From a bacterium (GTDB lineage Bacteria > Patescibacteriota > Minisyncoccia > Phycocordibacterales > UBA2100), in assembly GCA_016789445.1 (NCBI GenBank), contig JAEUQT010000001.1, positions 1,308 through 65,307 of the forward strand: DNA of 64,000 nucleotides. Direction: 5' to 3'. Both the position numbers and the translations under genes were made by a program. Each line of letters starts with the position of its first letter. The first letter of the stretch is position 1. Below, piece by piece: positions 4,708 to 46,225 of this stretch. The notes under the pieces are model-generated. The model ran no database searches. It had not been told where the DNA came from and saw nothing but the letters and a program-made list of their open reading frames with translations.

Positions 4708-4800
4708 TTGTATGAAGCCAAACATCAGGATTCTAGCCTTTCTAGGCTCATTCTGCTAGGCTGCCCGAAGCCAATAGTGGCTCAAAAAGAGGTGAATAGG

Positions 4801-5544: not shown

Positions 5545-5640
5545 TTCTTTCAACTTCACAGGCGGCCGCAAGGTCGCCTGTTTCTTTTTGCGCATGCACG
5601 CGGTATGCTCGCTGAGGTCAATAGAAACAGGAGTCAGACC

Positions 5641-6309
5641 ATGAGTGAACAATCCGTCTGGGATACGCTCCGAGATATGGGAGCAATCCTCAAGGACGAC
5701 CACTTCGTCTACACTAAGGGCGGCCACGGCAGCGAGTACGTCAACAAGGACGCACTTTTCATGCATCCCGCGGGCTTCTCGAAACTCTGCAGCATGATCG
5801 CTGACGAGTTCCGGGATATGTTCGGGACTCCGCTTCCTGATGTGGTCCTCGGACCAGCGGTTGGCGGCGCGCTTGTCGCGCAGCAGGTCGCATACCATCT
5901 CGGCGCGAACTCTCGATCGAAGCCATTGGCTATTTACGCCGACAAGGAAGGTGATGGATTCGTCCTAAAGCGCGGATACGATGAAAAAGTGCCGGGCAAG
6001 AAGATCCTTATCGTCGAGGATATCCTCAACACCGGAGGTTCCGTGAAGCAGGTTGTCGAACTTGCACGTACGCATGGCGGCGACGTCATCGGCGTCGGCG
6101 CCATCTGCAATCGTGGCGATGTGCGCATCGTCGACATCGGCAAGCCACCGAAATTATTCAGCGTCGTCTCGACGCGGATGGTCATGTACGATTCCAGCCA
6201 ATGTCCGCTCTGTGCGGAAGGGCGACCGATCAATACCAAGATCGGCAAAGGCAAGGAATACGTCGAGAAACACGGCCAGCCTAAGGTTCCTGATTACGAA
6301 GATTCCTAA
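5641..6309 (+). CDS. pyrE: Orotate phosphoribosyltransferase-like (type I PRTase)
   Basis: AGGAG RBS then ATG 5641. PRPP-binding motif ILIVEDILNTGGSVKQVVE. It is adjacent to pyrF. Confidence 0.75.
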   Translation: MSEQSVWDTLRDMGAILKDDHFVYTKGGHGSEYVNKDALFMHPAGFSKLCSMIADEFRDMFGTPLPDVVLGPAVGGALVAQQVAYHLGANSRSKPLAIYADKEGDGFVLKRGYDEKVPGKKILIVEDILNTGGSVKQVVELARTHGGDVIGVGAICNRGDVRIVDIGKPPKLFSVVSTRMVMYDSSQCPLCAEGRPINTKIGKGKEYVEKHGQPKVPDYEDS

Positions 6310-31867: not shown

Positions 31868-31985
31868 AACGTTTTCAGTTACGCACGATCCCCCGCTCGT
31901 GCGGTCCGGATAAATAGGTATGCGTACTATACTCCCGCACTACCGCTGAAGCGCAGATGAAGAGGTGCGCATGTGCATAACCGCA

Positions 31986-32103
31986 TCGGGATATTTTTCG
32001 TTTGCATTCCGAGGGTTTTCGCAGGCCCGACGGGGCCGAGACTGAGCGCTGCGCCAGCAGGCGCAGATAGCGACCCGAGGGAGGCAAGCGGAAAATATCC
32101 CGA
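31986..32103. repeat. Type-C MITE-like structured repeat with terminal inverted repeats
   Basis: Termini CGGGATATTTTTCG ... GCGGAAAATATCCCG. Core TTCGCAGGCCCGACGGGGCCGAGACTGAGCGCTGCGCCagcagGCGCAGATAGCGACC. Paralog at 54226-54326. Confidence 0.75.
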
Positions 32104-32106
32104 AGA

Positions 32107-32712
32107 TTAGTTGAACTTATTCATCGCGATCTCGCGTCCGTCGCTGACGATCAGCTCCAACGCCTCCCCTGCTTTCTTGAAAACGCTCTTCAGCGCCTGC
32201 ATTTCATCCGCCTTGAACTCGCCGAGGATGAATTTCTCCACTTCAGCCTCTCCCTGCGGCTTCTTCGCGACGCCATCCTTGTTCTCCTTTGAGATTCCGA
32301 GACGTATTCGTACGAATCGCTTCGTCTTCACGGCAGCAGCGATCGAATCGATCCCTTTATGTCCTCCGGAACCGCGATCGAAGGAGATTTTTATCGTTCC
32401 GAGCGGTAGATCGAGATCGTCATAGACGACAACGAGCTTCTCGGCGGCTTTCACGCTCTTTATATAGTGCAGAGCGGCGAGTCCGCTCTTATTCATATAG
32501 GTATTCGGCAGGACCGCGACCGCGATACTCTTACCGATCATGCCGCGCGCGATGAATGATCTCGCACGTGACTCCTCTTTCCACTCGGAGAAGCCGTGTT
32601 TCTCGGCGAATTTCTGCACCATCATGCGTCCGGCGTTATGCCGCGTACGCGCGTACTCTTCGTCGGGGTTTCCTAAGCCGATAACGACCCATGTCATGCG
32701 CATATCGTACAT
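32107..32712 (-). CDS. pth: Peptidyl-tRNA hydrolase
   Basis: VVIGLGNPDEEYARTRHNAG... Confidence 0.9.
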   Translation of the reverse strand: MYDMRMTWVVIGLGNPDEEYARTRHNAGRMMVQKFAEKHGFSEWKEESRARSFIARGMIGKSIAVAVLPNTYMNKSGLAALHYIKSVKAAEKLVVVYDDLDLPLGTIKISFDRGSGGHKGIDSIAAAVKTKRFVRIRLGISKENKDGVAKKPQGEAEVEKFILGEFKADEMQALKSVFKKAGEALELIVSDGREIAMNKFN

Positions 32713-32837
32713 GAAAGAAGAAGAAGTGAGAAAACTTTTTGCACATCGCGCGAAAAAAATTCAAAAAAGCAAAAAAATCCACACGCGACACTCGATTCGC
32801 TTTGTGTCAATGCATTCAATGAAGTATACTTGCGCGC

Positions 32838-33515
32838 ATGAATGATCCAGTGATGCAGGGAAACACATCACCGGAGATCCGAAGCAAGAACGAATCATCA
32901 CCAGGAGCATTTGCGACCTACGTGATGATCGCTCTCGGCCTCGCGCTCTTCATCCGCTTCTTTATCGCAGCGCCGTATGTCGTTTCGGGCGCTTCGATGG
33001 AACCCACCTTTGATAATTGGGACTATCTCATCACCGACCGCCTCTCGTATCGCCTCAGCGATCCGCAGCGCGGCGATGTCGTCGTCTTCTGCCTCCCCGG
33101 AAGCGGCGAATGCTCGCTTATAGAACGTCTCAAGAACCGCGAATTGCAGGCACCGCGCACGCTCATCAAGCGCGTGATCGGTCTTCCGGGAGAAACGGTC
33201 TCCGTTTCCGAAGAAGGCGTACGTATCTCGAGCGCAGAGAACCCTGAAGGCTTCCTTCTCGACGAACCATACCTCTCTCCGAGCAATCTCGGCGGTCCAT
33301 CCGGCATGGAATTGAAGCTCGATACCGATGAATACTTCGTCATGGGAGACAACCGCCGCGTCTCATCTGATTCCCGCATCTGGGGAGTACTGCCGAAGGA
33401 GGACATCCTCGGTCACGTGCTCGTCCGTCTCTTCCCGGTCTCATCCGTCGGCGTGTTGCCGGGGGACGCGGACTATCCTTCTCAAGATTCTGGCGCAGAG
33501 GATTCGGGGCAATAA
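32838..33515 (+). CDS. lepB: Signal peptidase I
   Basis: TM anchor, catalytic VSGASMEPTF, box GDVVVF, C-terminal GDNRRVSSDSRIWG. Confidence 0.9.
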   Translation: MNDPVMQGNTSPEIRSKNESSPGAFATYVMIALGLALFIRFFIAAPYVVSGASMEPTFDNWDYLITDRLSYRLSDPQRGDVVVFCLPGSGECSLIERLKNRELQAPRTLIKRVIGLPGETVSVSEEGVRISSAENPEGFLLDEPYLSPSNLGGPSGMELKLDTDEYFVMGDNRRVSSDSRIWGVLPKEDILGHVLVRLFPVSSVGVLPGDADYPSQDSGAEDSGQ

Positions 33516-33518
33516 CCC

Positions 33519-34697
33519 ATGATCCAACTCAAACACACACGACACCAATCTACCGCAGCACTCGTCGAGCGTGCGATACGCACCGCCGAGTATTACGGCT
33601 TCACGTCGCTTGATGCGCGCCTCACCAAGGGTAGGAATTCGCTGCCGCAACAGAAGACCGACACCCTTCAGATTGCACGTAAGGACGAGAAGATGCTTCT
33701 GCAGAGCGCGAAGCTCTCCTTGAGCGCTAATCGTCAGCAGGGTGAGATCCCGCTCTACTGGCGCGTCGTAAAGAATCAGCCGGGAACTCGCGGACCGGTT
33801 GCGTCTCTTACCTTCGAACTCCATGTCGTCGGTGCTCCGGCTGCAATCGCCGAAGCGCTTCTCATCACCGTCGTGAATGCGGTCGCCGATGAAGCAGGCA
33901 TCGCCAACCGCGCGCTTTCCATCAACTCGATCGGCTCCATCGAATCGTCGAATCGCTTCGTGCGCGACGTGGGCCACTTCCTCCGCAAGCATATCGATAG
34001 CATCGCACCGGCGCTCCGACCGCGCGCAGCGCAGGATCCACTCGGCACGCTCATCCAATTGTTCGAGAAAGGTCATCCGGCCATGCCGCGCTCGCCGCAG
34101 AGCGTCGAATATCTCACCGAAGAAGAACGTCGTCGCTTCTGGGATCTTCTTGAATACCTCGAGATGTCCGACATCCCGTACGAATTGCATGCGGGAGTCC
34201 TCGGCAGCCGCGATTTCTGGGCACACACGTTGTTCGAAGTGTCCGCCCAGGATCCGGAAACGAATTCACGTGTCGTCTTTGCAAGCGGCGGTCGGTACGA
34301 TCCGCTCGCCACGCGCCTCATGGGCCATCCGGCTACCGCGGCAGTCGCAACCATCACCTGCGAGATCCGCGGCAAGAGCGCGGTCCCCGCGGTACGCAAG
34401 ACAGCGCCCGCGCTCTACTTCGCCCACCTCGGCGCCGAAGCGCGCCGCCGCGCGCTCCCCATCCTCGAAGCGTTGCGCCGCGAAGGCATCGCCGTCGAGC
34501 AATCACTCATGTATGACCGATTGCAGGAACAGATGGATCGCGCCAAGAGCATGAAGGTCTCGCACCTCCTCATCATGGGCCACAAGGAAGCGATGGAGGG
34601 CACCGTCCTCGTCCGCGAAGTCGCGACCAACAGCCAGGAAGCCATTTTGATTCCGGACCTCCCGAGTTATCTTCGTCGTCAGAAAGTGCGAGTATAG
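33519..34697 (+). CDS. Histidyl-tRNA synthetase-like protein (class II core with degenerate motif 2 and histidine-binding residues; anticodon-binding domain present)
   Basis: LSINSIGSIES... aligns with HisRS LELNSIGSLEA; GGRYD motif 3 region; C-terminal HLLIMGHKEAMEGTVLVREV resembles the HisRS anticodon-binding domain. Catalytic arginines and the GLDYY box are not conserved. Confidence 0.55.
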   Translation: MIQLKHTRHQSTAALVERAIRTAEYYGFTSLDARLTKGRNSLPQQKTDTLQIARKDEKMLLQSAKLSLSANRQQGEIPLYWRVVKNQPGTRGPVASLTFELHVVGAPAAIAEALLITVVNAVADEAGIANRALSINSIGSIESSNRFVRDVGHFLRKHIDSIAPALRPRAAQDPLGTLIQLFEKGHPAMPRSPQSVEYLTEEERRRFWDLLEYLEMSDIPYELHAGVLGSRDFWAHTLFEVSAQDPETNSRVVFASGGRYDPLATRLMGHPATAAVATITCEIRGKSAVPAVRKTAPALYFAHLGAEARRRALPILEALRREGIAVEQSLMYDRLQEQMDRAKSMKVSHLLIMGHKEAMEGTVLVREVATNSQEAILIPDLPSYLRRQKVRV

Positions 34698-34746
34698 AAA
34701 ACACCCGACGAGGTTTTCGTCGGGTGTCTATATTGAAGATAAGAGG

Positions 34747-35184
34747 CTAATGCATCGTCAGGGCGGACAACGCGGTGTGCATGATGACCACCGATACCCA
34801 TCCGAGCATGCCGGCGGTAATCATTGTTCGGCATGCTACTGAGTACCTGTCCTCCATGGCTATAAACACATAACCAAGGAACATGGTCACACTGGAAATC
34901 GCTACAAGGACGGTCTGGCCAGTCTTATCGAGCACGATAAAGCGCCAGCACACTAATCCTATTGCAAGCATAGCGAGACCCTTGAGAGCGGAACGAATAT
35001 TCCGATCCCTCCCCCTACGCAGCCAGCCTTCCTGCCTCGCTTTCTCGAACCACGACGGCCACATGCCCCAACTCTCGTCGTATGTCCCAGGCTTAAGTTG
35101 CCTGCTGAACATGACCACTTTCTGCGAAGCAGTGAGAAAGAGCGTTGCCCCGAAAAGAGCGAGAATAAAACCGAGAGTTGCCAT
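34747..35184 (-). CDS. Hypothetical integral membrane protein
   Basis: 145 aa with about four predicted TM helices. Confidence 0.5.
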   Translation of the reverse strand: MATLGFILALFGATLFLTASQKVVMFSRQLKPGTYDESWGMWPSWFEKARQEGWLRRGRDRNIRSALKGLAMLAIGLVCWRFIVLDKTGQTVLVAISSVTMFLGYVFIAMEDRYSVACRTMITAGMLGWVSVVIMHTALSALTMH

Positions 35185-35306
35185 CTGGATCTCCTATTCC
35201 CTGATTCGGTTTCTATATTAAATTATAGTACAAATATAAATAAAGTCAATATCCCCGTTTTAGCTCTATTGCGCCCCTCTATACCCCGTGGTAGTATCCC
35301 CAGCAC

Positions 35307-35648
35307 ATGATAAACGCAGAAGTACAGAAGACCGGTGCCGAGAGCGCCCTTTCGGTCATCCGAAAGTTCTCCCGCCGCGTCCAGGGTACGGGCCTCATCC
35401 AGACCGTCCGCAAGCGCCGTTACTACGAGCGCGATATGTCCAAGACCGTTTCCAAGAAGCGCGCACTCAAGCGTATCCAGCGTCACCAGAGTCGCCAGGA
35501 ACTCATCAAGGAGGGCAAGCTCGTCGAAGAAGTCCGCCGCGGCCGTCGTCCGGCGACCGGCTCGATGAGCCGCGAGAATGCTCAGGCTCCGGCACCTGCA
35601 GCCGGCCGCTCGTCCGGGTTGGGCGAAAACACCCCGATCGCACGTTAG
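35307..35648 (+). CDS. rpsU: 30S ribosomal protein S21 with C-terminal extension
   Basis: ALSVIRKFSRRVQGTGLIQTVRKRRYYERDMSK...KRALKRIQRH pattern of bS21. Confidence 0.65.
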   Translation: MINAEVQKTGAESALSVIRKFSRRVQGTGLIQTVRKRRYYERDMSKTVSKKRALKRIQRHQSRQELIKEGKLVEEVRRGRRPATGSMSRENAQAPAPAAGRSSGLGENTPIAR

Positions 35649-35777
35649 GCCGTGTGTATAAGCCTCATCTGCATCGTTGCGGGGCCCCTACAATTTCCTC
35701 ATCGTACCTAAAAGTACGACTCGAAAATTGTCTTCCCCGCGTCTCACATCTGAAGCTTCTCCACACCGCCTAATTTC

Positions 35778-36179
35778 ATGAGCCAATCTCCCCATATCGA
35801 TATCAAACGCACGGTACGTGATTCCGTGCGACTTCCATTTGAAGCCATGGCCAAGGTCATCCTCCCCGCCGGTTACCAGCTTTCCCTCGTCATCTGCGGC
35901 GACGATCTCGCGCAGCGCATGAACGCCACCTACCGCAAGAAAACCTACAAGCCGAACGTCCTTTCCTTCCCTATTTCGAAATATGAAGGCGAGATCTTCC
36001 TCAATGTCCGCAAAGCCGAGCGCGAAGCGCGTGCCATGAAGGTCTCCCGCGACTGGCGCTTGGCCCACCTCTTCATCCACGGCTGCGCACACCTCACCGG
36101 CCACGACCATAGCGACAAGATGGATGCTTTGGAGACCAAGGTCCTGAAAAAGTTCGGTTTCAAGGGGATTCCACAGTAA
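35778..36179 (+). CDS. ybeY: rRNA maturation endoribonuclease YbeY
   Basis: H-x-x-x-H-x-x-x-x-x-H motif in LFIHGCAHLTGHDHSD. Confidence 0.85.
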   Translation: MSQSPHIDIKRTVRDSVRLPFEAMAKVILPAGYQLSLVICGDDLAQRMNATYRKKTYKPNVLSFPISKYEGEIFLNVRKAEREARAMKVSRDWRLAHLFIHGCAHLTGHDHSDKMDALETKVLKKFGFKGIPQ

Positions 36180-36232
36180 TCCGAGCAACAAAGCCATAAA
36201 AATGAGGCAGTCATGCGCTACAATGTGCTGAC

Positions 36233-37402
36233 ATGCAGAAGTTCTATGCGGGAATCGATGTCGGCACGCACTACATAAAAGTAGTGGTTGCTACACCGCC
36301 CGAGAACAGCGACGCGCCGATGCAGATCCTCGCCACCGCGACCTCACCTTCAAAGGGGGTCCGGCACGGCTACATCGTGGATCAGAAAGAAGCGACGCGT
36401 GCGATCTACGACGCGGTGCAACGCGCGTCCCAAGCAGCGCGCATCCCGATCAAACACGCACGTGTCGCCATGGGCGGCATCTCGCTTGAAGAGGTGCGCT
36501 CAAGCGCCGACATCACACTCACCGCATCAGGTGGCGTCGTCAAGCCGCATGAAATGGAACGCGTGCTCGCTGAGAGCGAGAAGCGCGCATCGTCACGTCT
36601 TTCCAATCGCACCGTCGTCCACGTCATCCCCCTCGAATATCGTCTTGATGGGATTCCCGTGCAGGGACGCCCGCTTGGTCTGCAGGGCACGAAACTTTCC
36701 GCCGACACGCTGCTCATCACGATGCTCGCGCAGCATCACGACGATCTCATCGAAGCAGTCGAAGCCGCCGGCGTCGAAGTAGAAGGCATCATGGCCTCTC
36801 CGCTTGCGGCGAGTTTAGTGACGCTCACCAAAGCACAGAAGACCGCCGGCGTCGTCCTCGCGAACATCGGTGCGGAAACACTTTCGATCGTCGTCTTCGA
36901 CGAAGACACGCCGATCTCCCTCAAAGTTTTTCCCACGGGCTCATCAGAAATCACCGACGCGCTCGCACTCTCCTTCCAGCTCCCGCTCTCCGAGGCTGAG
37001 CAATTGAAACGTGGCGCGATCACCGGCAGTACGGTTTCTCCGTCAAAGGCCGCGACGGTCACCAATGCACAATTGAAGAAGATGTTCGCGCTCATCAGCA
37101 CGCACCTGAAGGCGATCAAACGCGATCGCCTGCTTCCCGCAGGCATCGTACTCACCGGCGGCGGTGCAAGCCTTACTGCAGCAGCTGATGTCGCGAAGAC
37201 GGCGCTCAAACTCCCGTCCCAGATCGGTCTCCCCGTCATGTCCGCACGCGTCTCTAGCCTCGATGCGACGTGGGCAGTCTCGCTGGGTCTTTGTCGCTGG
37301 GGTTTCGCGGAAGATCGCATCGGCCGCCATCATCAATTGGGCGATATCGTCGAACGCATGCTCGACGCCGTGAAGAACGCGTTCCGCTCGCTCCTACCGT
37401 AG
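36233..37402 (+). CDS. ftsA: Cell division protein FtsA-like (actin-fold ATPase)
   Basis: N-terminal FYAGIDVGTHYIKVVV phosphate-1 motif, 389 aa, immediately upstream of ftsZ. Confidence 0.8.
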   Translation: MQKFYAGIDVGTHYIKVVVATPPENSDAPMQILATATSPSKGVRHGYIVDQKEATRAIYDAVQRASQAARIPIKHARVAMGGISLEEVRSSADITLTASGGVVKPHEMERVLAESEKRASSRLSNRTVVHVIPLEYRLDGIPVQGRPLGLQGTKLSADTLLITMLAQHHDDLIEAVEAAGVEVEGIMASPLAASLVTLTKAQKTAGVVLANIGAETLSIVVFDEDTPISLKVFPTGSSEITDALALSFQLPLSEAEQLKRGAITGSTVSPSKAATVTNAQLKKMFALISTHLKAIKRDRLLPAGIVLTGGGASLTAAADVAKTALKLPSQIGLPVMSARVSSLDATWAVSLGLCRWGFAEDRIGRHHQLGDIVERMLDAVKNAFRSLLP

Positions 37403-37487
37403 TCCCGCATATGGCTCTGTTAAGCCGTGAAAGACGACTCGAAATCATGCACGCGTCAAGGATTACAAGAAATCCTCGTGTGCTATC

Positions 37488-38768
37488 ATGACCCAACAAG
37501 ATTTTCTTTCTATGGCAAAACAAGTACGACCTGAAGTTGAATCGTTTGCACGCATCCGGGTCGTCGGTGTAGGAGGTTCAGGAGGCAACACCATCAATCA
37601 CATGGTTTCTTCCCACGTCGTCGGCGTGGATTTCCTCGCGGTCAACACCGATGCGCAGGATCTCCAGAAGTCGAAGGCGAAGCGCAAGATCCACATCGGC
37701 CGCAACCTCACGCGCGGTCTCGGTACCGGCATGGATCCGGATTTGGGAAAGCAGGCGGCTGAAGAGACGCGCGAAGAAATCCAAGAAGCACTCAAAGGCT
37801 CCGACATGGTGTTCGTCACCTGTGGTATGGGGGGAGGCACCGGCACCGGTGCAGCTCCGGCGGTCGCGAAGATCGCGCGCGAATTGGGCGCACTCACCGT
37901 CGGCGTCGTTACGAAACCGTTTTCATTCGAAGGCGCGCAGCGCATGCGCTTGGCCGACAACGGCATCATGGAATTGCGCAAGTCCGTCGACGCGATCATC
38001 ATCATCCCGAACGACAAGCTCATGCAGATCGTCTCGCGTGAGACCGGCATCAAGAACGCGTTCCAGATGTGCGATGACATCCTGAAGCAGGCGGTCGAAG
38101 GCATCTCCGACCTCATCACCACCACCGGCATCATCAACGTCGACTTCGCGGATGTGCGCACCATCATGCACAACGCAGGCTCAGCACTCATGGGTATCGG
38201 TACGGCGATCGGCGAGAAGCGCGCAGAAACGGCAGCTCGCCTCGCGATCAACTCTCCGCTCCTCGAAGTTTCCATCAACGGTGCGAAGGGCGTGCTCTTC
38301 TCTGTTGCCGGTGGCGACGACCTCTCCATGCTCGAAGTGCAGGAAGCGGCGAACGTCATCACCGAAGCGATCGATCCGGAAGCGAAGGTCATCTTCGGTG
38401 CCGTCACCGACGAGAATCTCAAGAAGGGTCAGGTCAAGGTTACCGTCATCGCGACCGGCTTCCCGGAGAGCCTCGGCGGCGGCAAAGTCGGCTATCCGAC
38501 GACACCAATCGCCGTTCCGCAGCGCCTTTCCCGCAAGGAGCCTGAAATGACCCCGATCCGCAAAATGGAACCATCCCCGATCATCGAGAAGTCCGTCGTC
38601 CCACCATCCCGTGAGAAGAAGGAAGAATCCCCGATCATCAAGCGGGACGAGAAGAAGGACGAGGCCCCGAAAGAGCCACCGCGCCCGCAGGAAATCCAAC
38701 CCATCCAAGGCACGAGCGACGATGACGATGTCTGGGGCGGATTCCCTTCCTTCCTTCGCCGCAAGTAA
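37488..38768 (+). CDS. ftsZ: Cell division protein FtsZ
   Basis: Tubulin signature GGGTGTG, T7 loop, and a disordered C-terminal tail ending DDDDVWGGFPSFLRRK. Confidence 0.95.
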   Translation: MTQQDFLSMAKQVRPEVESFARIRVVGVGGSGGNTINHMVSSHVVGVDFLAVNTDAQDLQKSKAKRKIHIGRNLTRGLGTGMDPDLGKQAAEETREEIQEALKGSDMVFVTCGMGGGTGTGAAPAVAKIARELGALTVGVVTKPFSFEGAQRMRLADNGIMELRKSVDAIIIIPNDKLMQIVSRETGIKNAFQMCDDILKQAVEGISDLITTTGIINVDFADVRTIMHNAGSALMGIGTAIGEKRAETAARLAINSPLLEVSINGAKGVLFSVAGGDDLSMLEVQEAANVITEAIDPEAKVIFGAVTDENLKKGQVKVTVIATGFPESLGGGKVGYPTTPIAVPQRLSRKEPEMTPIRKMEPSPIIEKSVVPPSREKKEESPIIKRDEKKDEAPKEPPRPQEIQPIQGTSDDDDVWGGFPSFLRRK

Positions 38769-38804
38769 TCCCTCAAAGAGATGGATTGACATGCCACTTT
38801 TTCG

Positions 38805-39164
38805 ATGGCATCATCCATTCGGTTGTTAATCCTATTCATTAGAAGGAGGAGGCAGGTGGAACCACCGATCGATCAAGTGAAGCTAGGTCTGCAGATGCTA
38901 TTCACGGCAGTTACGTGGATGACATATCGATACCTCTATTACGGACGGCCACTCTCGTTCCTCGATTTCATGGGGACTGTTGCTATCGGAGCGTTCGCTG
39001 CGTCAGGGCTTTTTTGGCTCATGCAGCGTCCCTCCCTGAAGCAGCTCTTTGCGGACATCAGCTTCTGGCCAGCAGTTGCCGTTTCAACATTCGTGGCAAT
39101 GTGCTTTCTCGTTCTCTACGGACTGTACTATCGCATCATAAAAGGCCGTCCTGTTGAAGGATGA
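38805..39164 (+). CDS. Hypothetical membrane protein
   Basis: 119 aa with about three TM helices. Confidence 0.45.
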   Translation: MASSIRLLILFIRRRRQVEPPIDQVKLGLQMLFTAVTWMTYRYLYYGRPLSFLDFMGTVAIGAFAASGLFWLMQRPSLKQLFADISFWPAVAVSTFVAMCFLVLYGLYYRIIKGRPVEG

Positions 39165-39218
39165 GCCGGAAACGACTCACTTCGGTGAGTCGTTTTACTT
39201 TGATATACTGTCCTTCCT

Positions 39219-40184
39219 ATGTATGACCTCGCAATCGTCGGTGGCGGCCCCGCAGGGGTAGCAGCAGCCGTATACGCAGCGCGCAAGCGCCTGAAGACCA
39301 TCCTCATCACCGATGATTGGGGCGGCCAGAGCACCGTTTCTCCGGAAATCCAGAACTGGATCGGCGATCAGGCCATCAGTGGCGCCGATCTCGCGAAGAA
39401 ACTCCGCGCACATGTCGAAGCCTATAAGGGCGAATGGCTCACCATCGTCTCTCCGCACCGCGCAAAGACGACGGTCGATAACGGCACGCACATCACCATC
39501 ACCTGTTCCGACAGTTCCACCCACGAAGCACGCACCCTTCTCATCGCCACCGGCTCCAACCGCCGCAAACTCGAAATCCCGGGCGCGGCGGAATACGACA
39601 ATAAAGGCCTCACCTACTGCGCCTCGTGCGATGGACCCCTGTTCGCTGACATGGACGTCGCCGTCATCGGCGGCGGCAACGCCGCGTTCGAAACCGCGAT
39701 GCAGCTCCTCGCGTACTGCAAGACCGTCACCCTTTTCAATCGCTCCGAGACGTTCCGCGCCGACGAACTCACTGTCGAGAAAGTACTCGCACACCCGAAG
39801 ATGCGCGTCGAGAAGAATTCCACGCTTCTGGAAGTCACCGGCGAGAAATTCGTGAACGGTCTGCGCTTCAAGAATGCTGCCGGCGAAGAGAAGAAGCTTG
39901 ATGTCGCGGGTATCTTCGTCGAGATCGGCCTTGTCCCGAACACCGACTGGGTGAAGGACGTCGTGAAGATGAACGAGATCGGCCAGATCATCGCCGATCC
40001 GTACACCCAGCGCACCTCCAACGCCCGCATCTGGGCGGCGGGTGATTGCACCGACGGCAAGTACCACCAGAACAACATCGCCGCAGGAGACGCCGTGAAG
40101 GCGCTCGAAGACATCTACGCCTACGTCCACATGGAAAAGGACCACCAGCCCGCGACTGCCAGCATATCCGAAATCGTAGTCTAA
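39219..40184 (+). CDS. trxB: Thioredoxin-disulfide reductase
   Basis: FAD motif AIVGGGPAG, redox CASCDG, NAD(P) motif VAVIGGGNAAFE. Confidence 0.9.
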   Translation: MYDLAIVGGGPAGVAAAVYAARKRLKTILITDDWGGQSTVSPEIQNWIGDQAISGADLAKKLRAHVEAYKGEWLTIVSPHRAKTTVDNGTHITITCSDSSTHEARTLLIATGSNRRKLEIPGAAEYDNKGLTYCASCDGPLFADMDVAVIGGGNAAFETAMQLLAYCKTVTLFNRSETFRADELTVEKVLAHPKMRVEKNSTLLEVTGEKFVNGLRFKNAAGEEKKLDVAGIFVEIGLVPNTDWVKDVVKMNEIGQIIADPYTQRTSNARIWAAGDCTDGKYHQNNIAAGDAVKALEDIYAYVHMEKDHQPATASISEIVV

Positions 40185-40308
40185 ACGCGATCTGACGCAG
40201 GAATGCGGTAGATGCGAGGCGCGGGGAAAGCGGCGACGGAGACGTACCTGCGCGCACGATGACGTCGACGCAGGGGTCCCGCAACGATGCAGATGGCGTA
40301 TTCCCGCG

Positions 40309-40506
40309 TCAGATAGTGCCGTCCTCCATTATTACGCCCTCTGGAATTTCCTTTTTCGGGTCATCCTCCGACATGCGGGTCTTCACCTCTGCCTGTATCT
40401 GCGTCGCCGGTTTTCTCTCACCACGCGTCGAGAAGTGTGATTCCTGCCAGAAGTAGTACATCGCCCCCGCGATGATAACGACGACGATCGCGATTCCCCA
40501 TTTCAT
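40309..40506 (-). CDS. Hypothetical small membrane protein
   Basis: 65 aa with an N-terminal TM helix. Confidence 0.35.
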   Translation of the reverse strand: MKWGIAIVVVIIAGAMYYFWQESHFSTRGERKPATQIQAEVKTRMSEDDPKKEIPEGVIMEDGTI

Positions 40507-40518
40507 ATATAAAGTATA

Positions 40519-41430
40519 TCACTGCACAAAAGATCTTGTATTTTCTAAATGGAACGCGAGAAAGTATGAGGGTAGTTTCTTGAATCCGAAGCGGCTGTAT
40601 ACATACCGCTCCCCTACTGCAATCCGAGCAAGGCGGATGCGTACTCCTGGAAACTCTCTTTGCTTGAACCATTCGCTAACGAGTAAAATATCCTCCCAGT
40701 GCTTCTGACCTCTCGTCACTGCAGGAGATCTCATAAAAGCCACGAGTTCGGCGGGAGGACGTACTGGGAATAATCCCTCAATTACGATCAATCCCCCCGG
40801 CTTTGTCACACGAATCGCCTCCTTGAAGGTCGACGCCTGATCAAGGTCATAATCAATGAAGTAACTTAAGAAAGTAAGGTCGAATGATCCGGCAGGATAT
40901 CCAACGGATTCAAGACGCCCCACGCTACCGTTAAATCCCTCATTCTTAAGCAATGAGACACTCACACCACTTACATCGACACCGTACAGCTGTTGAGGAG
41001 GAACGCGCAATCTCGATGCAAAGAACTTAAGTGTCTCTCCACTTCCAGCACCAACATCTACAATTGAAAGATGAGACGCTCTATCGATAGTACAATTAGT
41101 CACCAGTTCGAATCCTCGTTCCGTATGGAGAGGGCTCAGATATCGATACCGGGTCTCTGTCCCTCGATATTCAGCGTCGTATATTCCACCTATTACCGCA
41201 TCGCCTGAAATGGTCTCGCGACCATACACCACACTCGCACCCTGCATAACGCCAGCGTGTGCCGTCTTGGTCGGTATATTCTGCCGAAAATAACGCGCAC
41301 AGGATTGATAGTGGTTCATAAACCCGGGGTCCAGATTGAGATCAATCATTTCCGCTCCGATCCTTCGCGCCAATTCACGCAAGCGATAGAGACGGAAGGA
41401 TCGAAGAGGGTTTGGTAGCGTCGGGATCAT
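40519..41430 (-). CDS. Class I SAM-dependent methyltransferase
   Basis: Motif I IVDVGAGSGETL, 303 aa. Confidence 0.7.
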   Translation of the reverse strand: MIPTLPNPLRSFRLYRLRELARRIGAEMIDLNLDPGFMNHYQSCARYFRQNIPTKTAHAGVMQGASVVYGRETISGDAVIGGIYDAEYRGTETRYRYLSPLHTERGFELVTNCTIDRASHLSIVDVGAGSGETLKFFASRLRVPPQQLYGVDVSGVSVSLLKNEGFNGSVGRLESVGYPAGSFDLTFLSYFIDYDLDQASTFKEAIRVTKPGGLIVIEGLFPVRPPAELVAFMRSPAVTRGQKHWEDILLVSEWFKQREFPGVRIRLARIAVGERYVYSRFGFKKLPSYFLAFHLENTRSFVQ

Positions 41431-41483
41431 GAATATGCTAGGTTTGCCACGGATTTACTCAGCATAACAGAAAGGAGTACAAG

Positions 41484-41690
41484 GTGGCTAAGAATGAATA
41501 TACATCCGAAGCACGCCACTGTGCATGCAAACACGGATGTCCCGTATATGCTGATATTCGACGATGGGATTGTGGCTGCGTGACGGTTATTATTCATAAT
41601 AATCGCGAACGCGGCAGCGACTGCACTAATTTTTCAGCAATGAAGCACCAGTGTGGCCAGAGAGGACATCCAAGCGCTCATCGTGGATAA
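41484..41690 (+). CDS. Hypothetical small Cys/His-rich protein (GTG start)
   Basis: AAAGGAG RBS 5 nt before GTG 41484. 68 aa with HCACKHGCP...CGC...DC...HQCGQRGH. Confidence 0.4.
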   Translation: MAKNEYTSEARHCACKHGCPVYADIRRWDCGCVTVIIHNNRERGSDCTNFSAMKHQCGQRGHPSAHRG

Positions 41691-41724
41691 TCTAATAACC
41701 GACCTTCTCAGGTCGGTTATTTTT

Positions 41725-42657
41725 CTACTTACCCATCTGGATGCTCTGCGCGATACGGTCGATGACGGCGTCGAGGTTGTAGTTCTCCTGCTCGCTCACG
41801 CACGCCTGTTGCTGCGGACCTTCGATATTGAGGCACTGCGGATAGCGGAGCTGGAAGAACAGACGGTACGTCGCATCGCCGAACGCGAACGCGTATTCAT
41901 AGGCACGCACATCACCCTCAGCCGTCCCCTGTGCCCGCGACGTGACGCAGTACTCACGATCGCCGATCGTGCGCTTCTCGACGGTCTGCATCGGCCCGTC
42001 TGCGGCAGTTATCGGTCCTGAATTACAGGAATACTGATTCACGACTCTCTCAACGACCGGCGGCCACTGTGCGGCTTGGATATACGTCGTCGGAAGCTCC
42101 ACCGGATACATGAAGCTGATATTCTGCGCATTTGCCGATGAACGCAGCCACTGTCCCTCGTTTGGAGCCGGTGCCATGATGAATTCCGTAATCCGCCAGC
42201 CATCTTCAAGCTGCTCGACGGTGATAGTAACCGGGCGTCGGAGCGCTTCGGTCGGCTCTTCGTTGATACCACCTCCTTCGTTCGTTACTTCCACGATATC
42301 ACCTTCGACGCGGTACCGTGTGTCAGTCTCCTTTGTCAGAGTGCGGATATCGATGCGATCCGGCCACGGACTCGACGTCAGTCTTCCTGGCGCATTCGCC
42401 GGGTCGATTGCCCACTCCTGAACGAGCACATCCAAGACGTACGGACTGTAATTTGCCCGCATAGCAGCTTCCACATCGGCCGACGGTGCAAGAAGCGATA
42501 CATCCTTGAGCTGCGACCCGAAATCTTCCACAACGCGACGCACGGCCGCCTCTTGATCCACCTGAAACGGCGTCACTGAAATAAGGTAGGCACCACCAAT
42601 GACCAAAAGAAGGACGATAGCCGCCAGCCAGGGCCAGAAGCGATTCATGAATTCCAT
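41725..42657 (-). CDS. Hypothetical membrane-anchored extracytoplasmic protein
   Basis: N-terminal TM helix, 310 aa. Confidence 0.55.
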   Translation of the reverse strand: MEFMNRFWPWLAAIVLLLVIGGAYLISVTPFQVDQEAAVRRVVEDFGSQLKDVSLLAPSADVEAAMRANYSPYVLDVLVQEWAIDPANAPGRLTSSPWPDRIDIRTLTKETDTRYRVEGDIVEVTNEGGGINEEPTEALRRPVTITVEQLEDGWRITEFIMAPAPNEGQWLRSSANAQNISFMYPVELPTTYIQAAQWPPVVERVVNQYSCNSGPITAADGPMQTVEKRTIGDREYCVTSRAQGTAEGDVRAYEYAFAFGDATYRLFFQLRYPQCLNIEGPQQQACVSEQENYNLDAVIDRIAQSIQMGK

Positions 42658-42788
42658 TGTATCAATAAGACGGCTTGGCTTCCTTATGCTTACGTGTCGT
42701 AAGGGAATCGGTGGAAAAGCCGAGGTATTTGACTTAATTATTTATTTAATGTATAATTACACCAGTCGTTCAGTACAGGAGGATTCCC

Positions 42789-43541
42789 ATGTCAACGACA
42801 TCGACCACTCTCTTCCTTACGGCCCTCGTCACCGGCGCCGGTTCCCTCTGCCTCGATGCGAACAAGCAGGTGGTCTACAACGGCGCGTCAGACAGCTGCC
42901 TCTCCTCGACGCGCGACACGAAGGAGGAAATCAATCCCCTCGTGACCGAAGCTCTCGAGCAGGTCCTCGCGCTCAACCCGGTCTCCTTCAGATACAAGCA
43001 TGGCGACGGCCGCACCCGATACGGCTTCATCGCCGAAGACGCGGCCGACGTGGACGCTCATCTCGCCACCTATGATGCCCAATTGAATATCTCCGGCATC
43101 GACGACCGCGCCATCCTCGCCATCCTCGTCGGCGCCATCCAGGACCTCGCCCGTAAACTCGCGGACCTGGCGGAACACCTCGTCACGAAGGAACTGGCAT
43201 TCCAGCGCGCCGTCGGCGAAAGCCTGACGCTCACGCGCGAACTCTGCATCGCCGAGGGCGCGAACGACGCTTCCCCGCTCTGCCTTACCAAATCCCAGCT
43301 CAACGCCCTGCTAAACCAGATCGGCGCCGCCGTGCTCCCCTCATCCGTGCCGCCTCCAGCGGCTAATGACGACGTCCCGGACCTCCCCGATGCTTCGGCA
43401 TCGCCCGACGATAATGGGACACCCCAACAGCAACAAGAGCCAGCGTACGAGAACCCGGAGCCGGGCTTGGGGACTGAAGCACTCGGTCCTAGCCCTGCGG
43501 ATGCCGAACCTGCACCCGCGATGGAAACCACGGGCAGCTAA
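42789..43541 (+). CDS. Protein with a tail-fibre/endosialidase intramolecular-chaperone (peptidase S74-like) domain
   Basis: N-terminal hydrophobic segment, then LNPVSFRYKHGDGRTRYGFIAEDAADVDAH...AILAILVGAIQDLARKLADL, which matches the C-terminal chaperone domain of phage tail fibres. Pro/Asp-rich tail. Confidence 0.55.
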   Translation: MSTTSTTLFLTALVTGAGSLCLDANKQVVYNGASDSCLSSTRDTKEEINPLVTEALEQVLALNPVSFRYKHGDGRTRYGFIAEDAADVDAHLATYDAQLNISGIDDRAILAILVGAIQDLARKLADLAEHLVTKELAFQRAVGESLTLTRELCIAEGANDASPLCLTKSQLNALLNQIGAAVLPSSVPPPAANDDVPDLPDASASPDDNGTPQQQQEPAYENPEPGLGTEALGPSPADAEPAPAMETTGS

Positions 43542-43589
43542 TCCTCACGCTTCTACGCAAGCCGACCACGGCTTGGTACAATCATCTGC

Positions 43590-44306
43590 ATGATGCAGAG
43601 ACTTCAGCGAGGCCTCGAGATGATAGCCGCTGGGTTTGTCGGCGCGGTCTTCACCTCAGTGGTCGTCGTCGCCTGGGCAGGCCCGACGTCCGCACCACCC
43701 AACGGCAACGCCGCCGCGCCGATCAACATCGGAGCGACCGCGCAAGTCAAAAACGGCGGTCTCTCGGTGAACACGCTCGCTGTTTTCGGGAACGGTACGC
43801 TGACCGGCAATTTCGGCATCAACAACACTGCGCCCACCTATCGCCTCGACGTGAGCGGCAGCAGCCGCGTCGACGGCAACCTCCTCCTCTCCGGCGCGTC
43901 GCGCTACCTCAATTTCGGCGCCGCTACGGGCACGAGTGGTTATGGCATCCGCGACAATGCCGGCACGTTGCAGTTCAAGAACAGCAGCGGCAGCTGGAGC
44001 AGCTTCCTTCCGAGCAGCGGCGTGGTGAGCATTACTTTCATCGATGGCACGGTACAGACGACGGCAGCCGTGGCTGTCAGTCCTGTGCAAACCACGGTTT
44101 CGTGCACAACTGCTTCCACCGGAGGCTCGCGCTGCACGACCGCCAACTGTCCTTCGGGGTACGTCCGCACCGGATGCAGCGCGTATCGCTCAGGCGATGC
44201 GGTTACGGCCGGAGCAAGGCCGATCGGGACAGCGGCCTGTGAGTGCGCAAACCAGTACGTCGGTTCGCCAGGGACTTCGTGTTATACCTACTGCCTGAAG
44301 TTCTAG
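43590..44306 (+). CDS. Secreted beta-rich fibre-like protein with Cys-rich C-terminus
   Basis: Signal peptide, Gly/Asn/Thr-rich repeats (NIGATAQVKNGGLSVNTLAVFGNGTLTGNFGINNTAPTYRLDVSGSS...), then nine Cys in the last 60 aa. Confidence 0.55.
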   Translation: MMQRLQRGLEMIAAGFVGAVFTSVVVVAWAGPTSAPPNGNAAAPINIGATAQVKNGGLSVNTLAVFGNGTLTGNFGINNTAPTYRLDVSGSSRVDGNLLLSGASRYLNFGAATGTSGYGIRDNAGTLQFKNSSGSWSSFLPSSGVVSITFIDGTVQTTAAVAVSPVQTTVSCTTASTGGSRCTTANCPSGYVRTGCSAYRSGDAVTAGARPIGTAACECANQYVGSPGTSCYTYCLKF

Positions 44307-44377
44307 GCGGCGTTGGCGGAGTTCTGGAGCGAGCCGCCTGCCCCAAAAGGCCTCGCGCTGCGCGCGAGGCCTCCCAC

Positions 44378-44644
44378 TCAGTACTCATCCGCGAGCATGA
44401 TCGTGAGTACCCGCGTCGTGATACCCGCGTCAGCCGGATTCTCAGACCCGAACTCGAGATCCTTGGCGTAATAGTCAATCTTCCAGAACAGCATCTCGCC
44501 GACATGCTCGAAGCTGCCGAAGTCATGTTCACCCTGAGGGTCATTGTCTGGGGTGAAATCTTCAAAGCGCTTCACCTGTTCGTGGACTAGCACGACGCCG
44601 AGGGGCCACACCGCGACCAACTCCCGAACGCCGGCCGTGATCAT
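44378..44644 (-). CDS. Hypothetical protein
   Basis: 88-aa ORF. Confidence 0.35.
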   Translation of the reverse strand: MITAGVRELVAVWPLGVVLVHEQVKRFEDFTPDNDPQGEHDFGSFEHVGEMLFWKIDYYAKDLEFGSENPADAGITTRVLTIMLADEY

Positions 44645-44830
44645 GATCTGCCTTGTTCAGGTGCGACTCCGGCGTATGGACATGGGGATCCCACTTTCTA
44701 AAAATCGAGCCGTAGGGGGGGTAATTTGCCATAGAGAATCCATACTGCGCTTTCTGAACCTCAAGCTCAACTAAGCCTCAGCGGCGTATCGGAGCGGTAT
44801 GCACTCGCATACCTCCGATAAAAAATACTC

Positions 44831-44920
44831 TTGGCGGAGAGGGAGAGATTCGAACTCTCGAGACCGTTTCCAGTCTGCCGCATTTCGAGTGCGGTGCTTT
44901 CGACCACTCAGCCACCTCTC
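44831..44920 (-). tRNA. tRNA-Ser (anticodon CGA), CCA encoded
   Basis: Reverse complement reads GGAGAGG-TG-GCTGAGTGGTCGAAAGC-A-CCGCACTCGAAATGCGG-long variable arm-GAGAGTTCGAATCTCTC-CCTCTCC-G-CCA. Confidence 0.85.
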
Positions 44921-45069
44921 CAAGTCGATTGTGCGTTTTGCACGTTTAATCCTCGAGCACGTGCGGAGTTCGCTTCCTCCTGAAATCGGTGCGCCGAATT
45001 TCAATCGGCTCACATCGATTTCTCCTCGCGGAGCTCGGACCGGATGAAAAGCCGTCAACGGCATTTCAT

Positions 45070-45087
45070 CCACTCAGCCACCTCTCC
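45070..45087 (-). pseudogene. Partial 5' copy of tRNA-Ser (first 18 nt) followed by a strong hairpin
   Basis: Reverse complement reads GGAGAGGTGGCTGAGTGG, then GGATGAAATGCCGTTGACGGCTTTTCATCC. It lies 150 nt upstream of the intact tRNA-Ser on the same strand. Confidence 0.65.
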
Positions 45088-45357
45088 AGTCGGGCAGATA
45101 GTACCAGAATTAGCCCTTTTTGGCACGCTGAGCCTTGGTTTCTGCCTCTCGCTCAGCGACGTCATTAGCAAGCACTCGGGCAAGGGTCTGGCGCAGCTCA
45201 GCACGAGCCTTTTCGGGCAATTCGGAGGTATGCTCGCCTTCAGGGCGAGGAGTATGTGCGGGGAACTTCTCCACGCCGATAAGGATAGCATGCACGAGGA
45301 CACGAAAAGGACCACCCCTTCAAGTTTTGGGGAAAATGCGCTATATTGGCCCCCGTA

Positions 45358-45429
45358 GGCCTCATCGTCTAATGGTTAGGACAGCGCCTTTTCAAGGCGT
45401 TAATCGGGGTTCGATTCCCCGTGAGGTCA
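45358..45429 (+). tRNA. tRNA-Glu (anticodon TTC)
   Basis: GGCCTCA-TC-GTCTAATGGTTAGGAC-A-GCGCCTTTTCAAGGCGT-TAAT-CGGGGTTCGATTCCCCG-TGAGGTC-A. TATATT -10 at 45343-45348. Confidence 0.85.
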
Positions 45430-45430
45430 C

Positions 45431-46225
45431 ATGTATTCCCGGCTTACACTCAAAGAGTTCGCCAGGGACTTCGTAGTGTTCGGCATTAAGGAAGCTCGAT
45501 CCTGCATATTCGCAGGTTCGTTCTTCGTGCTTCTTTTCCTTTCCAATCACATTCCCCTCTTTGGTCTTGCCCGCTACGATTTTCTCTTTTTGAGCGCGAT
45601 AGCGCTGCAGATCATCCTCTTTCTCACGAAAGTAGAAACCTGGGACGAGATAAAGACTATCTTCCTCTTCCACATCGTCGGCACGGTACTTGAACTCTAT
45701 AAGACGAGTGCATTTGTCGGCTCATGGAGCTACCCGGAGGAAGCTTTTTTCAAGATCGCGACCGTTCCGCTCTTTTCCGGATTCATGTACGCAGCCGTCG
45801 GCAGCTACATCTCACAGGCATGGCGATTGCTGAAGCTCGAACTGCGCGGATACCCGCCGTACTGGATGACGGTCGTCCTCTGTTTTTTCATCTACCTCAA
45901 TTTCTTCACCAATCGTTTTGTACCGGATTTCCGCATCATCCTCATCCCGGCGGTCTTCGTCCTCTTCGCACGCACCTTCATCACGTTCGTACCAACGAAA
46001 CGCCGGTATTCCATGCCGCTCTCGCTCGGCTTCTGTCTCACCGCATTCTTTATCTGGATTGCCGAAAATCTCTCCACGCTCTGGGGCGCATGGCAGTATC
46101 CCGATCAGGTCCACGTCTGGAACGTCGTCAGCACCAACAAGATCACCTCATGGTTCCTCATGGTGATCATCAGCTTTATCATCGTGGCGTACCTCAAGCA
46201 CCACAAAGAGCGCTATAATCGGTAA
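45431..46225 (+). CDS. Hypothetical polytopic membrane protein
   Basis: 264 aa with about eight TM helices. The ATG is 2 nt after tRNA-Glu, so the real start may be further downstream. Confidence 0.5.
   Translation: MYSRLTLKEFARDFVVFGIKEARSCIFAGSFFVLLFLSNHIPLFGLARYDFLFLSAIALQIILFLTKVETWDEIKTIFLFHIVGTVLELYKTSAFVGSWSYPEEAFFKIATVPLFSGFMYAAVGSYISQAWRLLKLELRGYPPYWMTVVLCFFIYLNFFTNRFVPDFRIILIPAVFVLFARTFITFVPTKRRYSMPLSLGFCLTAFFIWIAENLSTLWGAWQYPDQVHVWNVVSTNKITSWFLMVIISFIIVAYLKHHKERYNR

Follow-up and report, generated by a model that had tools for sequence, protein, structure and literature searches.

The DNA analyzed here is a 64,000-nucleotide stretch (hereafter the window, always at its full length) of a metagenome-assembled genome (MAG) contig from Patescibacteria (a group also called the Candidate Phyla Radiation, or CPR), and the locus in question is a pair of adjacent genes with likeness to phage tail fibers, one encoding a product with a Peptidase_S74 domain and the other a protein with a Cys-rich C-terminus, which lie together in a short island beside a tRNA-Ser gene. 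Three open reading frames (ORFs) were confirmed at the locus, and comparison with sister strains delimits the island:

41725–42657, minus strand: 310-aa ORF
42789–43541, plus strand: 250-aa S74 ORF
43590–44306, plus strand: 238-aa ORF, an intact gene
42840–44833: island of 1,994 nt (fiber gene fragment, 238-aa gene and DUF3768 gene), which replaces 554 nt of backbone seen in the empty site of a sister strain (L254)
44832–44921, minus strand: tRNA-Ser(cga), at whose 3' end the island has its right-hand junction and integration recurs

The 250-aa product is identical to a protein from a MAG contig recorded at NCBI as "tail fiber domain-containing protein [bacterium]" (MBL8157967.1; its neighbors bear the locus tags JNK62_00280 and JNK62_00290), and relatives of all three proteins belong to Patescibacteria/CPR, namely Candidatus Kaiserbacteria, Paceibacterota and third-party annotation (TPA) records labeled Saccharibacteria. 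The rough gene map of the window is that of an ordinary chromosome, with translation-factor-like and tRNA-synthetase-like genes, 13 tRNAs, and ftsA-like and ftsZ-like genes just upstream of the locus; eight genes near the island were scanned against profiles and the remainder of the map was read by eye.

A preliminary description, made from the sequence, had recognized in the 250-aa product the self-cleaving chaperone domain of phage tail fibers and endosialidases, and this identification holds: the protein contains a genuine S74 domain, because Pfam and PHROG matches, a fold match and a Ser40/Lys45 dyad all point to it. The relevant features are:

42906–43193, plus strand: Peptidase_S74/intramolecular chaperone domain, aa 40 to ~135 (placed by Pfam, PHROGs, alignment with 8jov, the model and fold search, and conserved S40, R42, K45, R77, F80 and E83)
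42906–42908 and 42921–42923, plus strand: codons of Ser40 and Lys45
43194–43538, plus strand: family-specific tail after the S74 domain (helix, two-Cys beta-hairpin mini-domain and Pro/Asp-rich disordered end)

Pfam PF13884 (Peptidase_S74) matches residues 41–89 with an E-value of 5.2e-10 and 39.9 bits, against a gathering score of 22, and PHROG tail-fiber families match the product with their C-terminal ends, down to 5e-14. The Ser-Lys dyad that had been proposed is present as Ser40/Lys45 (S-x4-K); it aligns with SDERLK of a solved tail fiber (8jov) and is conserved in the family (Ser in 45 of 45 members, Lys in 42 of 43). Behind the catalytic Ser the window protein has Thr, as against Asp in SDxxxK, the form given for the Bdellovibrio fibers (PMC10769870). 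An AlphaFold2 model built on 48 relatives has a predicted local distance difference test score (pLDDT) above 80 over residues ~60–130 of the S74 core, and Foldseek finds its best PDB matches in MyRF ICA (7dc3; E 9e-4, probability 1.00), the GA-1 chaperone (3gud) and the endoNF chaperone (3gw6), the top hits having probabilities of 0.6–1.0 and a template-modeling score of ~0.5 on the target. Profile search and structure prediction of both proteins, by which the preliminary description would have its reading judged, gave a PF13884 match above threshold, an S74 fold and, for the 238-aa neighbor, a beta tip. The Pro/Asp-rich tail that had been noted is real and is a feature of the family; its mini-domain (aa ~150–181, with Cys153/Cys165) is modeled as a hairpin plus helix at a pLDDT of ~78–85, and its end carries an ANDD motif and a degenerate ...TTGS terminus.

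Two conserved Cys pairs bracket the S74 domain, Cys21/Cys37 before the cleavage Ser (codons 42849–42851 and 42897–42899) and Cys153/Cys165 in the tail hairpin (codons 43245–43247 and 43281–43283); the first pair is kept in 45 of 45 relatives, and the pairs, as disulfides, may be consistent with an extracytoplasmic full-length family. Approximately 10 of the 48 closest S74 relatives (P0002, P0005, P0006, P0007, P0009, P0012, P0028, P0042 and P0047 among them) end in ...LPATGTE or ...ATGSE; the window protein ends in METTGS (43521–43538), an LPxTG-like motif with no subsequent transmembrane segment, which might be a sortase-type or other processing signal.

The 250-aa ORF is chimeric, in that the start of a native 69-aa gene has been joined to the end of a giant fiber gene. 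The parts of the junction are as follows:

42729–42757, plus strand: sigma-70-type promoter TTGACT-17-TATAAT (11 of 12 matches), the same region preceding the intact 69-aa gene in L249 and L254
42777–42782, plus strand: ribosome-binding site AGGAGG, 6 nt ahead of the ATG, read from the sequence and kept in L249
42789–42839, plus strand: first 17 codons, MSTTSTTLFLTALVTGA, the backbone-derived 5' end of the 69-aa gene for a small protein with two transmembrane segments
42831–42839, plus strand: crossover microhomology of 9 nt, ACCGGCGCC (Thr-Gly-Ala), common to the 69-aa gene and the fiber genes (TGAGSLCLD) in a three-way alignment
42840–43541, plus strand: 3' fragment of a giant fiber gene (last shaft residues, aa 18–39, with the conserved Cys21/Cys37; S74 domain; C-terminal tail)

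The series of orthologs of the 310-aa gene was used to retrieve sister strains, and in three of these (L249, L253 and L254; 97.7–98.2% nucleotide identity) the alignment with the window breaks off at 42839; L249 is 97.7% identical over 31725–42839 and loses homology there. In the sister strains the same promoter, AGGAGG and ATG open an intact 69-aa protein with two transmembrane segments (MSTTSTTLFLTTLVTGAYLFAMAIFG...), downstream of which L254 has a terminator-like hairpin with a T-run; the promoter is that of the native 69-aa gene and now heads the chimeric ORF. From the other side, all 47 relatives of the S74 protein align to the window only from nucleotide 42831, that is from residue 15 (TGAGSLCLDANKQVVYN), and carry ...GNVGIGTTSPWRTLSVTGTVGFDGLTGS ahead of this point. 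The three-way alignment brings both sides together: the window tracks the sister strain through ...CTCGTCACCGGCGCC and then follows the giant-fiber genes (GGTTCCCTCTGCCTCGATGCGAACAAGCAGGT...). The fiber part from 42840 corresponds to the last ~235 codons of a giant fiber gene, including 23 shaft residues; ahead of Ser40 stand 39 residues, of which 17 are foreign, and not the end of a long fiber as in the relatives. Misassembly was considered as the source of the chimeric ORF and was rejected: nine overlapping nucleotides are too few for an assembler to join on, and the same 250-aa ORF, with one substitution, occurs in an ENA assembly of independent origin (ERZ761600; 99.66% identical over 42749–44209).

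The S74 protein had been described as N-terminally anchored and as a stand-alone architecture by design, and neither description survives this comparison. The N-terminal hydropathy peak is 1.38 (19-residue maximum) versus 2.17 and 2.47 for two real anchors, and residues 1–17, the supposed anchor, are half of the first transmembrane segment of an unrelated gene; the protein is hence not anchored, and it stands alone because the rearrangement removed its fiber.

What was removed can be gauged from the relatives. When the frame was followed upstream in 29 related loci, 490–2,100 residues preceded the alignment point unless a contig end cut them short. Complete giant-fiber members mostly start with a hydrophobic anchor or signal, and two start with an excisionase-like helix-turn-helix (HTH) domain followed by a transmembrane segment. 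Behind the S74 domain the family continues for 100–250 residues: a coiled coil comes first, then a two-Cys hairpin (LC.G..C[VL]T..Q), and the end is formed by a DUF5011 immunoglobulin (Ig) domain in some members and by a Pro/Asp/Glu-rich stretch bearing ANDN motifs in others. The window protein has this family tail. In L042 and L043 a 1,675-aa giant protein, which ends in the tail module of the window S74 ORF (...ELCLGSVCVTESQF...ANDN...), is followed by a 106-aa protein, by a 238-like protein to which the 238-aa protein is more closely related than to any other (62% identity), and by DUF3768 on the opposite strand, with ParA and AlpA further along; in L005 and L018, too, DUF3768 lies 1–3 kb from giant S74 fibers, and L177 has it near a 238-like gene. 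It follows from this order that the window S74 ORF sits at the expected 3' end of a giant fiber gene, in an arrangement that is recurrent, not universal. Housekeeping genes (MurJ, SecY, TGT, ribosomal proteins and MreB) flank 26 giant-fiber loci, and no phage structural family appears among the 25 listed of the 142 families matched in these flanks; across 2.9 million IMG/VR viral contigs, only the generic S74 domain is common to the S74 protein and viruses, at 27–43% identity.

Some giant fibers (1473–6500 in L042; 2571–8591 in L010) show an odd combination of a cytoplasmic, DNA-binding-like head (excisionase/MerR-like HTH), a transmembrane helix ~120–170 residues on and then an extracellular fiber; in the L042 protein a tail-collar domain and FSTTSADYW repeats are present as well. 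P0008 and P0012, a pair of short and nearly identical S74 proteins from other samples, differ from the window protein in their N-termini, which are unrelated and are attached only a few residues from the GAGSLCLD point; this hints at a recurrent recombination breakpoint there. Many assemblies (L041, L002/L003, L004, L011 and others) also have their breaks within the conserved shaft-end/S74 segment or a little upstream of it, which suggests that this segment is repeated within genomes or polymorphic in populations.

The neighboring 238-aa gene, which is identical in two other assemblies, encodes a small fiber-like protein of its own, with the following parts (positions in the 238-aa protein):

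aa ~10–29: transmembrane helix (Kyte-Doolittle 19-residue maximum 2.17; helix 2–29 in the model)
aa 28–75: conserved, CPR-specific N-module, AW(A/T)GPTSAPPNGN..PIN.G..QVKNGGL.VN.LAVFGN
aa ~97–139: shaft motif, RYLNFG..GYGIRDNAGTLQFKN, beta strands in the model
aa ~160–238: eight-Cys beta-sandwich tip, pLDDT above 90, holding all eight Cys

The preliminary description had called the protein secreted, beta-rich and Cys-capped; a strong N-terminal hydrophobic helix and a Cys-rich beta C-terminus are confirmed, with the correction that the Cys number eight, not nine. Conservation is concentrated in the N-module: ten positions are invariant and 24 near-invariant, most of them within residues 2–68, and the invariant ones in residues 28–68 are A28, P32, P37, N40, P44, N46, Q52, K54 and G67. 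A 76-residue N-module query retrieves 2,309 clusters at 50% identity (201 with E <=1e-10), and in the 150 top hits of the 2,309 the module stands at or near the N-terminus of proteins of 89–498 aa. The domains behind it vary, and include the Cys-rich tip, PF13884, PF07484 (tail collar), PF21722 (Gly-rich), PF05268, PF06594, PF18338, GP38-like and collagen sequences. The genes also multiply within genomes, with a second paralog in the same MAG (P0104, locus tag JNK62_03795) and arrays of two to five N-module hits each in 13 metagenome loci. On the viral side, the 2.9 million IMG/VR contigs match only the ~40-residue shaft motif (45–63% identity) and lack the N-module, and the 238-aa protein has no match in 50,697 GenBank phage records. 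We infer that the 238-aa protein is an adhesin or receptor-binding module and a member of a large CPR family with exchangeable tips; as a short membrane-anchored fiber with a Cys-rich tip, it probably binds a partner cell. Among the origins offered in the preliminary description, that of a cell-surface attachment fiber best suits the 238-aa gene and both families.

The predicted fold of the tip resembles resistin and the C-terminal domain of PCSK9, likewise disulfide-rich beta-sandwiches. As modeled, the similarity to the resistin/RELM head and to PCSK9 is one of fold only: the tip has eight Cys versus 11 in mouse resistin, and the resistin stalk is an alpha-helical coiled coil.

The island that holds these genes differs from its surroundings in composition (GC 0.618 versus ~0.56 in the backbone) and is absent from L254, a strain 95–98% identical, in which DUF817, tRNA-Glu, tRNA-Ser, a ~390-nt spacer, the intact 69-aa gene and the gene of the 310-aa protein follow one another. 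Comparison with L254 places the right junction exactly at the 3' end of tRNA-Ser (window 44834), and L253 diverges at the same nucleotide: L253 and L255 are 99.6% identical to L254 up to that point and then hold other cargo, comprising a DNA methyltransferase with a fused ParB-like domain (phrog_498, 1e-83), a large terminase (phrog_38, 2e-79) and a gene that weakly matches a small terminase. A tblastx comparison found no sequence in common between the L253 terminase insert and the window island or the compared loci. The more distant L250 keeps both flanks and has still other cargo (LOR, LAGLIDADG, PadR, NUDIX and CMAS), with the tRNA pair inverted. Because strains hold differing cargo at this position, the tRNA-Ser 3' end is a recurrent integration point; around it, ftsA, ftsZ and trxB on one side of the island and DUF817, Sua5 and TsaD on the other are syntenic with the sister strains.

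The packaging module of L253/L255 occupies positions 2645–6262 and is followed by the nonphage genes bPH_2 and a P-type ATPase, with no tRNA within 7 kb; in L250 (4771–9914) the LAGLIDADG endonuclease overlaps the tRNA-Ser end, and the stretch between and including the two tRNA genes runs in the opposite orientation to that in the window. The preliminary description had the pair flanked by tRNA-Ser and a duplicated 5' fragment of it. Both exist, the duplicate (25–29 nt, at 45064–45092) lying on the far side of the tRNA and so not flanking the pair: the 5' fragment forms a 29-nt direct repeat (44899–44927 and 45064–45092) around a 136-nt insert that is absent from L254, where the tRNA 5' end runs directly into the sequence at 45093, and this insert resembles either a small insertion or a scar left by another element on the 5' side of the tRNA. 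One Logan contig (SRR29876768; L041) is at least 99% identical to the window from 43112, its end, to ~46200, covering the 3' part of the S74 gene, the 238-aa gene, DUF3768, both tRNAs and DUF817, and then ~85% identical for the next 7 kb, as would result from recent recombination between diverged strains or from a chimeric metagenome contig.

We consider it likely that 42840–44833 is the remnant of a tRNA-integrated element that carried CPR cell-surface fiber genes, the S74 ORF being a chimeric leftover and the 238-aa gene an intact mini-fiber. In a Kaiserbacteria-like CPR bacterium, the 3' end of tRNA-Ser(CGA) would have received a mobile element that brought genes of two CPR families of membrane-anchored, phage-fiber-like surface proteins. 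A later deletion or illegitimate recombination at the 9-nt microhomology would then have removed everything from the interior of the giant fiber gene to the interior of the native 69-aa gene and, with it, the distal end of the element. The chimeric 250-aa ORF is most likely expressed but functionless, having no export signal and no fiber to fold. Its transcript may run into the 238-aa gene, because no terminator is predicted in the 48-nt gap between the two and the first strong hairpin lies beyond the 238-aa gene. The N-terminal helix would keep the 238-aa protein in the membrane, unless cleavage takes place after AWA; the protein would trimerize through its Gly/Asn-rich phage-like shaft, and its disulfide-rich tip would be exposed outside the cell to serve as an adhesin or receptor-binding module.

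Several observations weigh against this account or parts of it. Neither an integrase nor another mobility gene is found in the island by Pfam or NCBIfam, and no second copy of the tRNA-Ser 3' end that could serve as an attachment (att) repeat is present in the window, so that the case for an integrated element is one of position and comparison only, although both absences are consistent with a remnant. The island is 99–100% identical between assemblies (L041 has two differences from the window in 429 nt of the S74 part and none in the 717 nt of the 238-aa gene, so few that dN/dS, the ratio of nonsynonymous to synonymous substitution rates, is uninformative) and is thus too recent for decay or selection to be measured. 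The S74 ORF keeps all conserved S74 residues as well as a strong promoter and ribosome-binding site, and on this evidence may have residual activity. Trimerization and surface display of the 238-aa protein are inferred, and its monomer model (overall pLDDT 76.8) has low confidence in the Gly/Asn-rich residues 30–105. A giant fiber and a 238-like gene are paired in only a minority of loci: one of 79 loci with 238-like genes has a distant S74 gene nearby, and none of 36 S74 loci has a separate 238-like gene. Finally, the likeness of the tip to resistin has no counterpart in sequence, in that Pfam yields nothing at E <=0.1, that phmmer and hmmsearch runs against PDB sequences give, for the family profile, only a chance match to gp120 (E 4.1), and that hhalign assigns the 238-aa family a nonsignificant probability of 0.3% against mouse resistin.

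Alternatively, the island could be the right-hand (tail-fiber) end of a prophage at tRNA-Ser, with the S74 ORF and the 238-aa protein as remnants of virion receptor-binding proteins. The packaging module of L253/L255 occupies the same attachment point and has the same direction of transcription as the two window genes, which fits a packaging-to-tail-fiber order; phage fibers often carry S74 domains and the RYLNFG..GYGIRDNAGT motif, the relative P0043 adjoins ImmA/HTH genes and a large serine recombinase, and L042 has AlpA and ParA genes. Virion proteins, however, assemble in the cytoplasm and are not expected to have membrane anchors, whereas the 238-aa protein and the full-length giant fibers carry N-terminal membrane anchors or signal sequences. 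The housekeeping flanks of the 26 giant-fiber loci, the absence of the N-module from IMG/VR and of the 238-aa protein from the GenBank phage records, and the lack of shared sequence between the L253 insert and the window island speak against a prophage as well, and we regard this explanation as unlikely; the best reading of the housekeeping flanks, membrane anchors and missing close viral relatives is that the CPR families are cellular rather than viral. In the "degraded prophage tail module" of the preliminary description, the word "degraded" is apt for the S74 gene, a 5'-truncated remnant, and a prophage tail module is possible only as the origin of the island. The wider inspection for phage structural genes that had been recommended revealed none among the window genes checked, and the three island genes include none by Pfam, PHROGs or NCBIfam. 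A remnant of a tailocin or contractile injection system, also offered earlier, is unsupported because no sheath, tube or baseplate gene is seen near the island or in syntenic sister loci; no such gene, nor a spike gene, is annotated in L249, L250 or L254 (window ~29.8–51.3 kb) or found among the eight window genes scanned, the island spans only 2 kb and three genes, its proteins carry membrane anchors, and the idea is scarcely credible.

One may also ask whether the 250-aa S74 protein works alone, either as a trans-acting trimerization chaperone for the 238-aa fiber or by cleaving itself and setting free a peptide of 40 residues. The catalytic Ser40/Lys45 and every residue invariant in the family are intact, the promoter is near consensus and the ribosome-binding site strong, the 48-nt gap to the 238-aa gene suggests cotranscription, and a few other variants have short N-termini (P0008, P0012 and P0043). 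Set against these points, the start of the ORF was borrowed from an unrelated gene by a single rearrangement, the protein has no export signal though its presumed client is extracytoplasmic, the pairing of the two genes is not conserved at the loci counted above, and in the analogous mosaic adhesive trimer (MAT) fibers of Bdellovibrio bacteriovorus the non-S74 tips fold independently (PMC10769870), all of which makes a function of this kind highly improbable. Our preferred account therefore remains that of an element remnant in which the S74 ORF is a leftover and the 238-aa gene is intact.

The remaining features of the locus lie around these genes:

44378–44644, minus strand: DUF3768 gene, 88 aa (Pfam E 7.9e-31), the island gene nearest the tRNA
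44348–44372: perfect 11-bp GC-rich hairpin without a T-run (ViennaRNA fold), between the convergent 238-aa and DUF3768 genes
45358–45430, plus strand: tRNA-Glu

The hairpin is, as folded, a probable bidirectional terminator, and an Rfam scan of 42600–45500 found nothing beyond the two tRNAs. The 310-aa gene, which the preliminary description had taken into the unit, is a conserved Patescibacteria backbone gene (orthologs at 97, 90, 88 and 86% identity) and stands outside the fiber unit. PHROGs gave no match for the 238-aa protein, the 310-aa protein or DUF3768, and NCBIfam none for the giant protein of L042 or for the S74, 238-aa and DUF3768 proteins of the window. DUF3768, for which no paper was found in the literature search and no solved structure by sequence, recurs beside fiber genes in five independent contexts (window 44378–44644; L005 2380–2634; L018 951–1121; L042 8309–8617; L177 94–291), and its C-terminus is shortened by a 14-bp deletion in L041 (81 versus 88 aa). 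Several of the 13 tRNA genes in the 64 kb adjoin short hypothetical ORFs, which suggests further variable spots.

Both families can be set beside known systems. The S74 domain has family membership, the Ser-x4-Lys dyad and the predicted fold in common with endosialidase and phage tail-fiber domains (PF13884; 3GW6, 3GUD, T5 pb1), and in the full-length CPR relatives it also follows a long shaft, whereas the window copy has no fiber. The CPR clade differs from phage S74 domains in having Thr or Leu, not Asp, after the catalytic Ser and in not ending with the domain, which is followed by those 100–250 residues of coiled coil, two-Cys hairpin and DUF5011 Ig domain or Pro/Asp-rich tail. The best structural match, MyRF ICA (7DC3), shares ~20% sequence identity with the 250-aa product, and in MyRF, as in the CPR family, the S74-type domain is internal in a membrane-anchored protein; MyRF, however, releases an N-terminal transcription factor from the endoplasmic reticulum membrane, and nothing comparable is indicated here. 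The island resembles tRNA-targeted islands in lying flush with a tRNA 3' end, in its absence from a 95–98% identical strain, in its shifted GC and in a site that holds other cargo, including a terminase module, in sister strains; it is unlike typical ones in that the integrase and att direct repeat are gone and one end was erased by a deletion into a backbone gene.

The closest likeness in design is to the MAT fibers of B. bacteriovorus, which combine an invariant N-terminal domain, a trimeric fiber and swappable S74 or non-S74 tips in 21 paralogs (PMC10769870), and for which surface location and glycan binding have been shown (Caulton et al. 2024, PMC10769870). Like these, the CPR 238-aa family forms multigene families with an invariant N-module by an export signal or anchor, a fiber shaft and exchangeable S74 or non-S74 tips; the host of the MAT fibers lives by contact with other bacteria, and its phage-fiber-like surface proteins are encoded by the cell, as are those of the CPR families. 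The comparison is one of design; the N-modules differ, that of the MAT fibers consisting of a signal peptide and a ~130-aa beta domain and that of CPR of a transmembrane helix and the AWTGPTSAPPNGN motif. The window member is also much shorter than the MAT fibers, and surface location and ligand binding of the CPR proteins are predicted by analogy.

The S74 annotation was already known from NCBI, and the 250-aa ORF, as a broken gene, is unremarkable in itself; it does illustrate that a single rearrangement can yield a plausible-looking "new architecture." The mini-fiber family fits a known kind, that of cell-encoded phage-fiber-like adhesins. In the literature searched we did not find a CPR family of N-anchored mini-fibers with exchangeable tips, its links to giant S74 fibers and a strain-variable tRNA hotspot, or the resistin-like tip, and the search returned no paper linking S74 or fiber-like proteins to CPR bacteria. 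According to the abstracts consulted, little is known beyond type IV pili about how CPR/Patescibacteria recognize and hold their hosts. With their conserved anchor, phage-like shaft, swappable tips, multigene arrays and strain-variable integration hotspot, the 238-aa protein and its relatives are candidate determinants of host specificity. We tentatively hypothesize, as a possibility that may well not hold, that the 238-aa family and the giant S74 fibers are host-recognition adhesins of CPR episymbionts, that their tips are shuffled between strains by tRNA-integrating elements and that one common tip is a bacterial relative of the Cys-rich domain of vertebrate resistin and PCSK9. If that tip were homologous rather than convergent, a vertebrate domain would gain a bacterial relative; and if the adhesin reading is true, the CPR would have their counterpart of the Bdellovibrio MAT fibers, in the form of a large undescribed family of at least 2,309 clusters at 50% identity.

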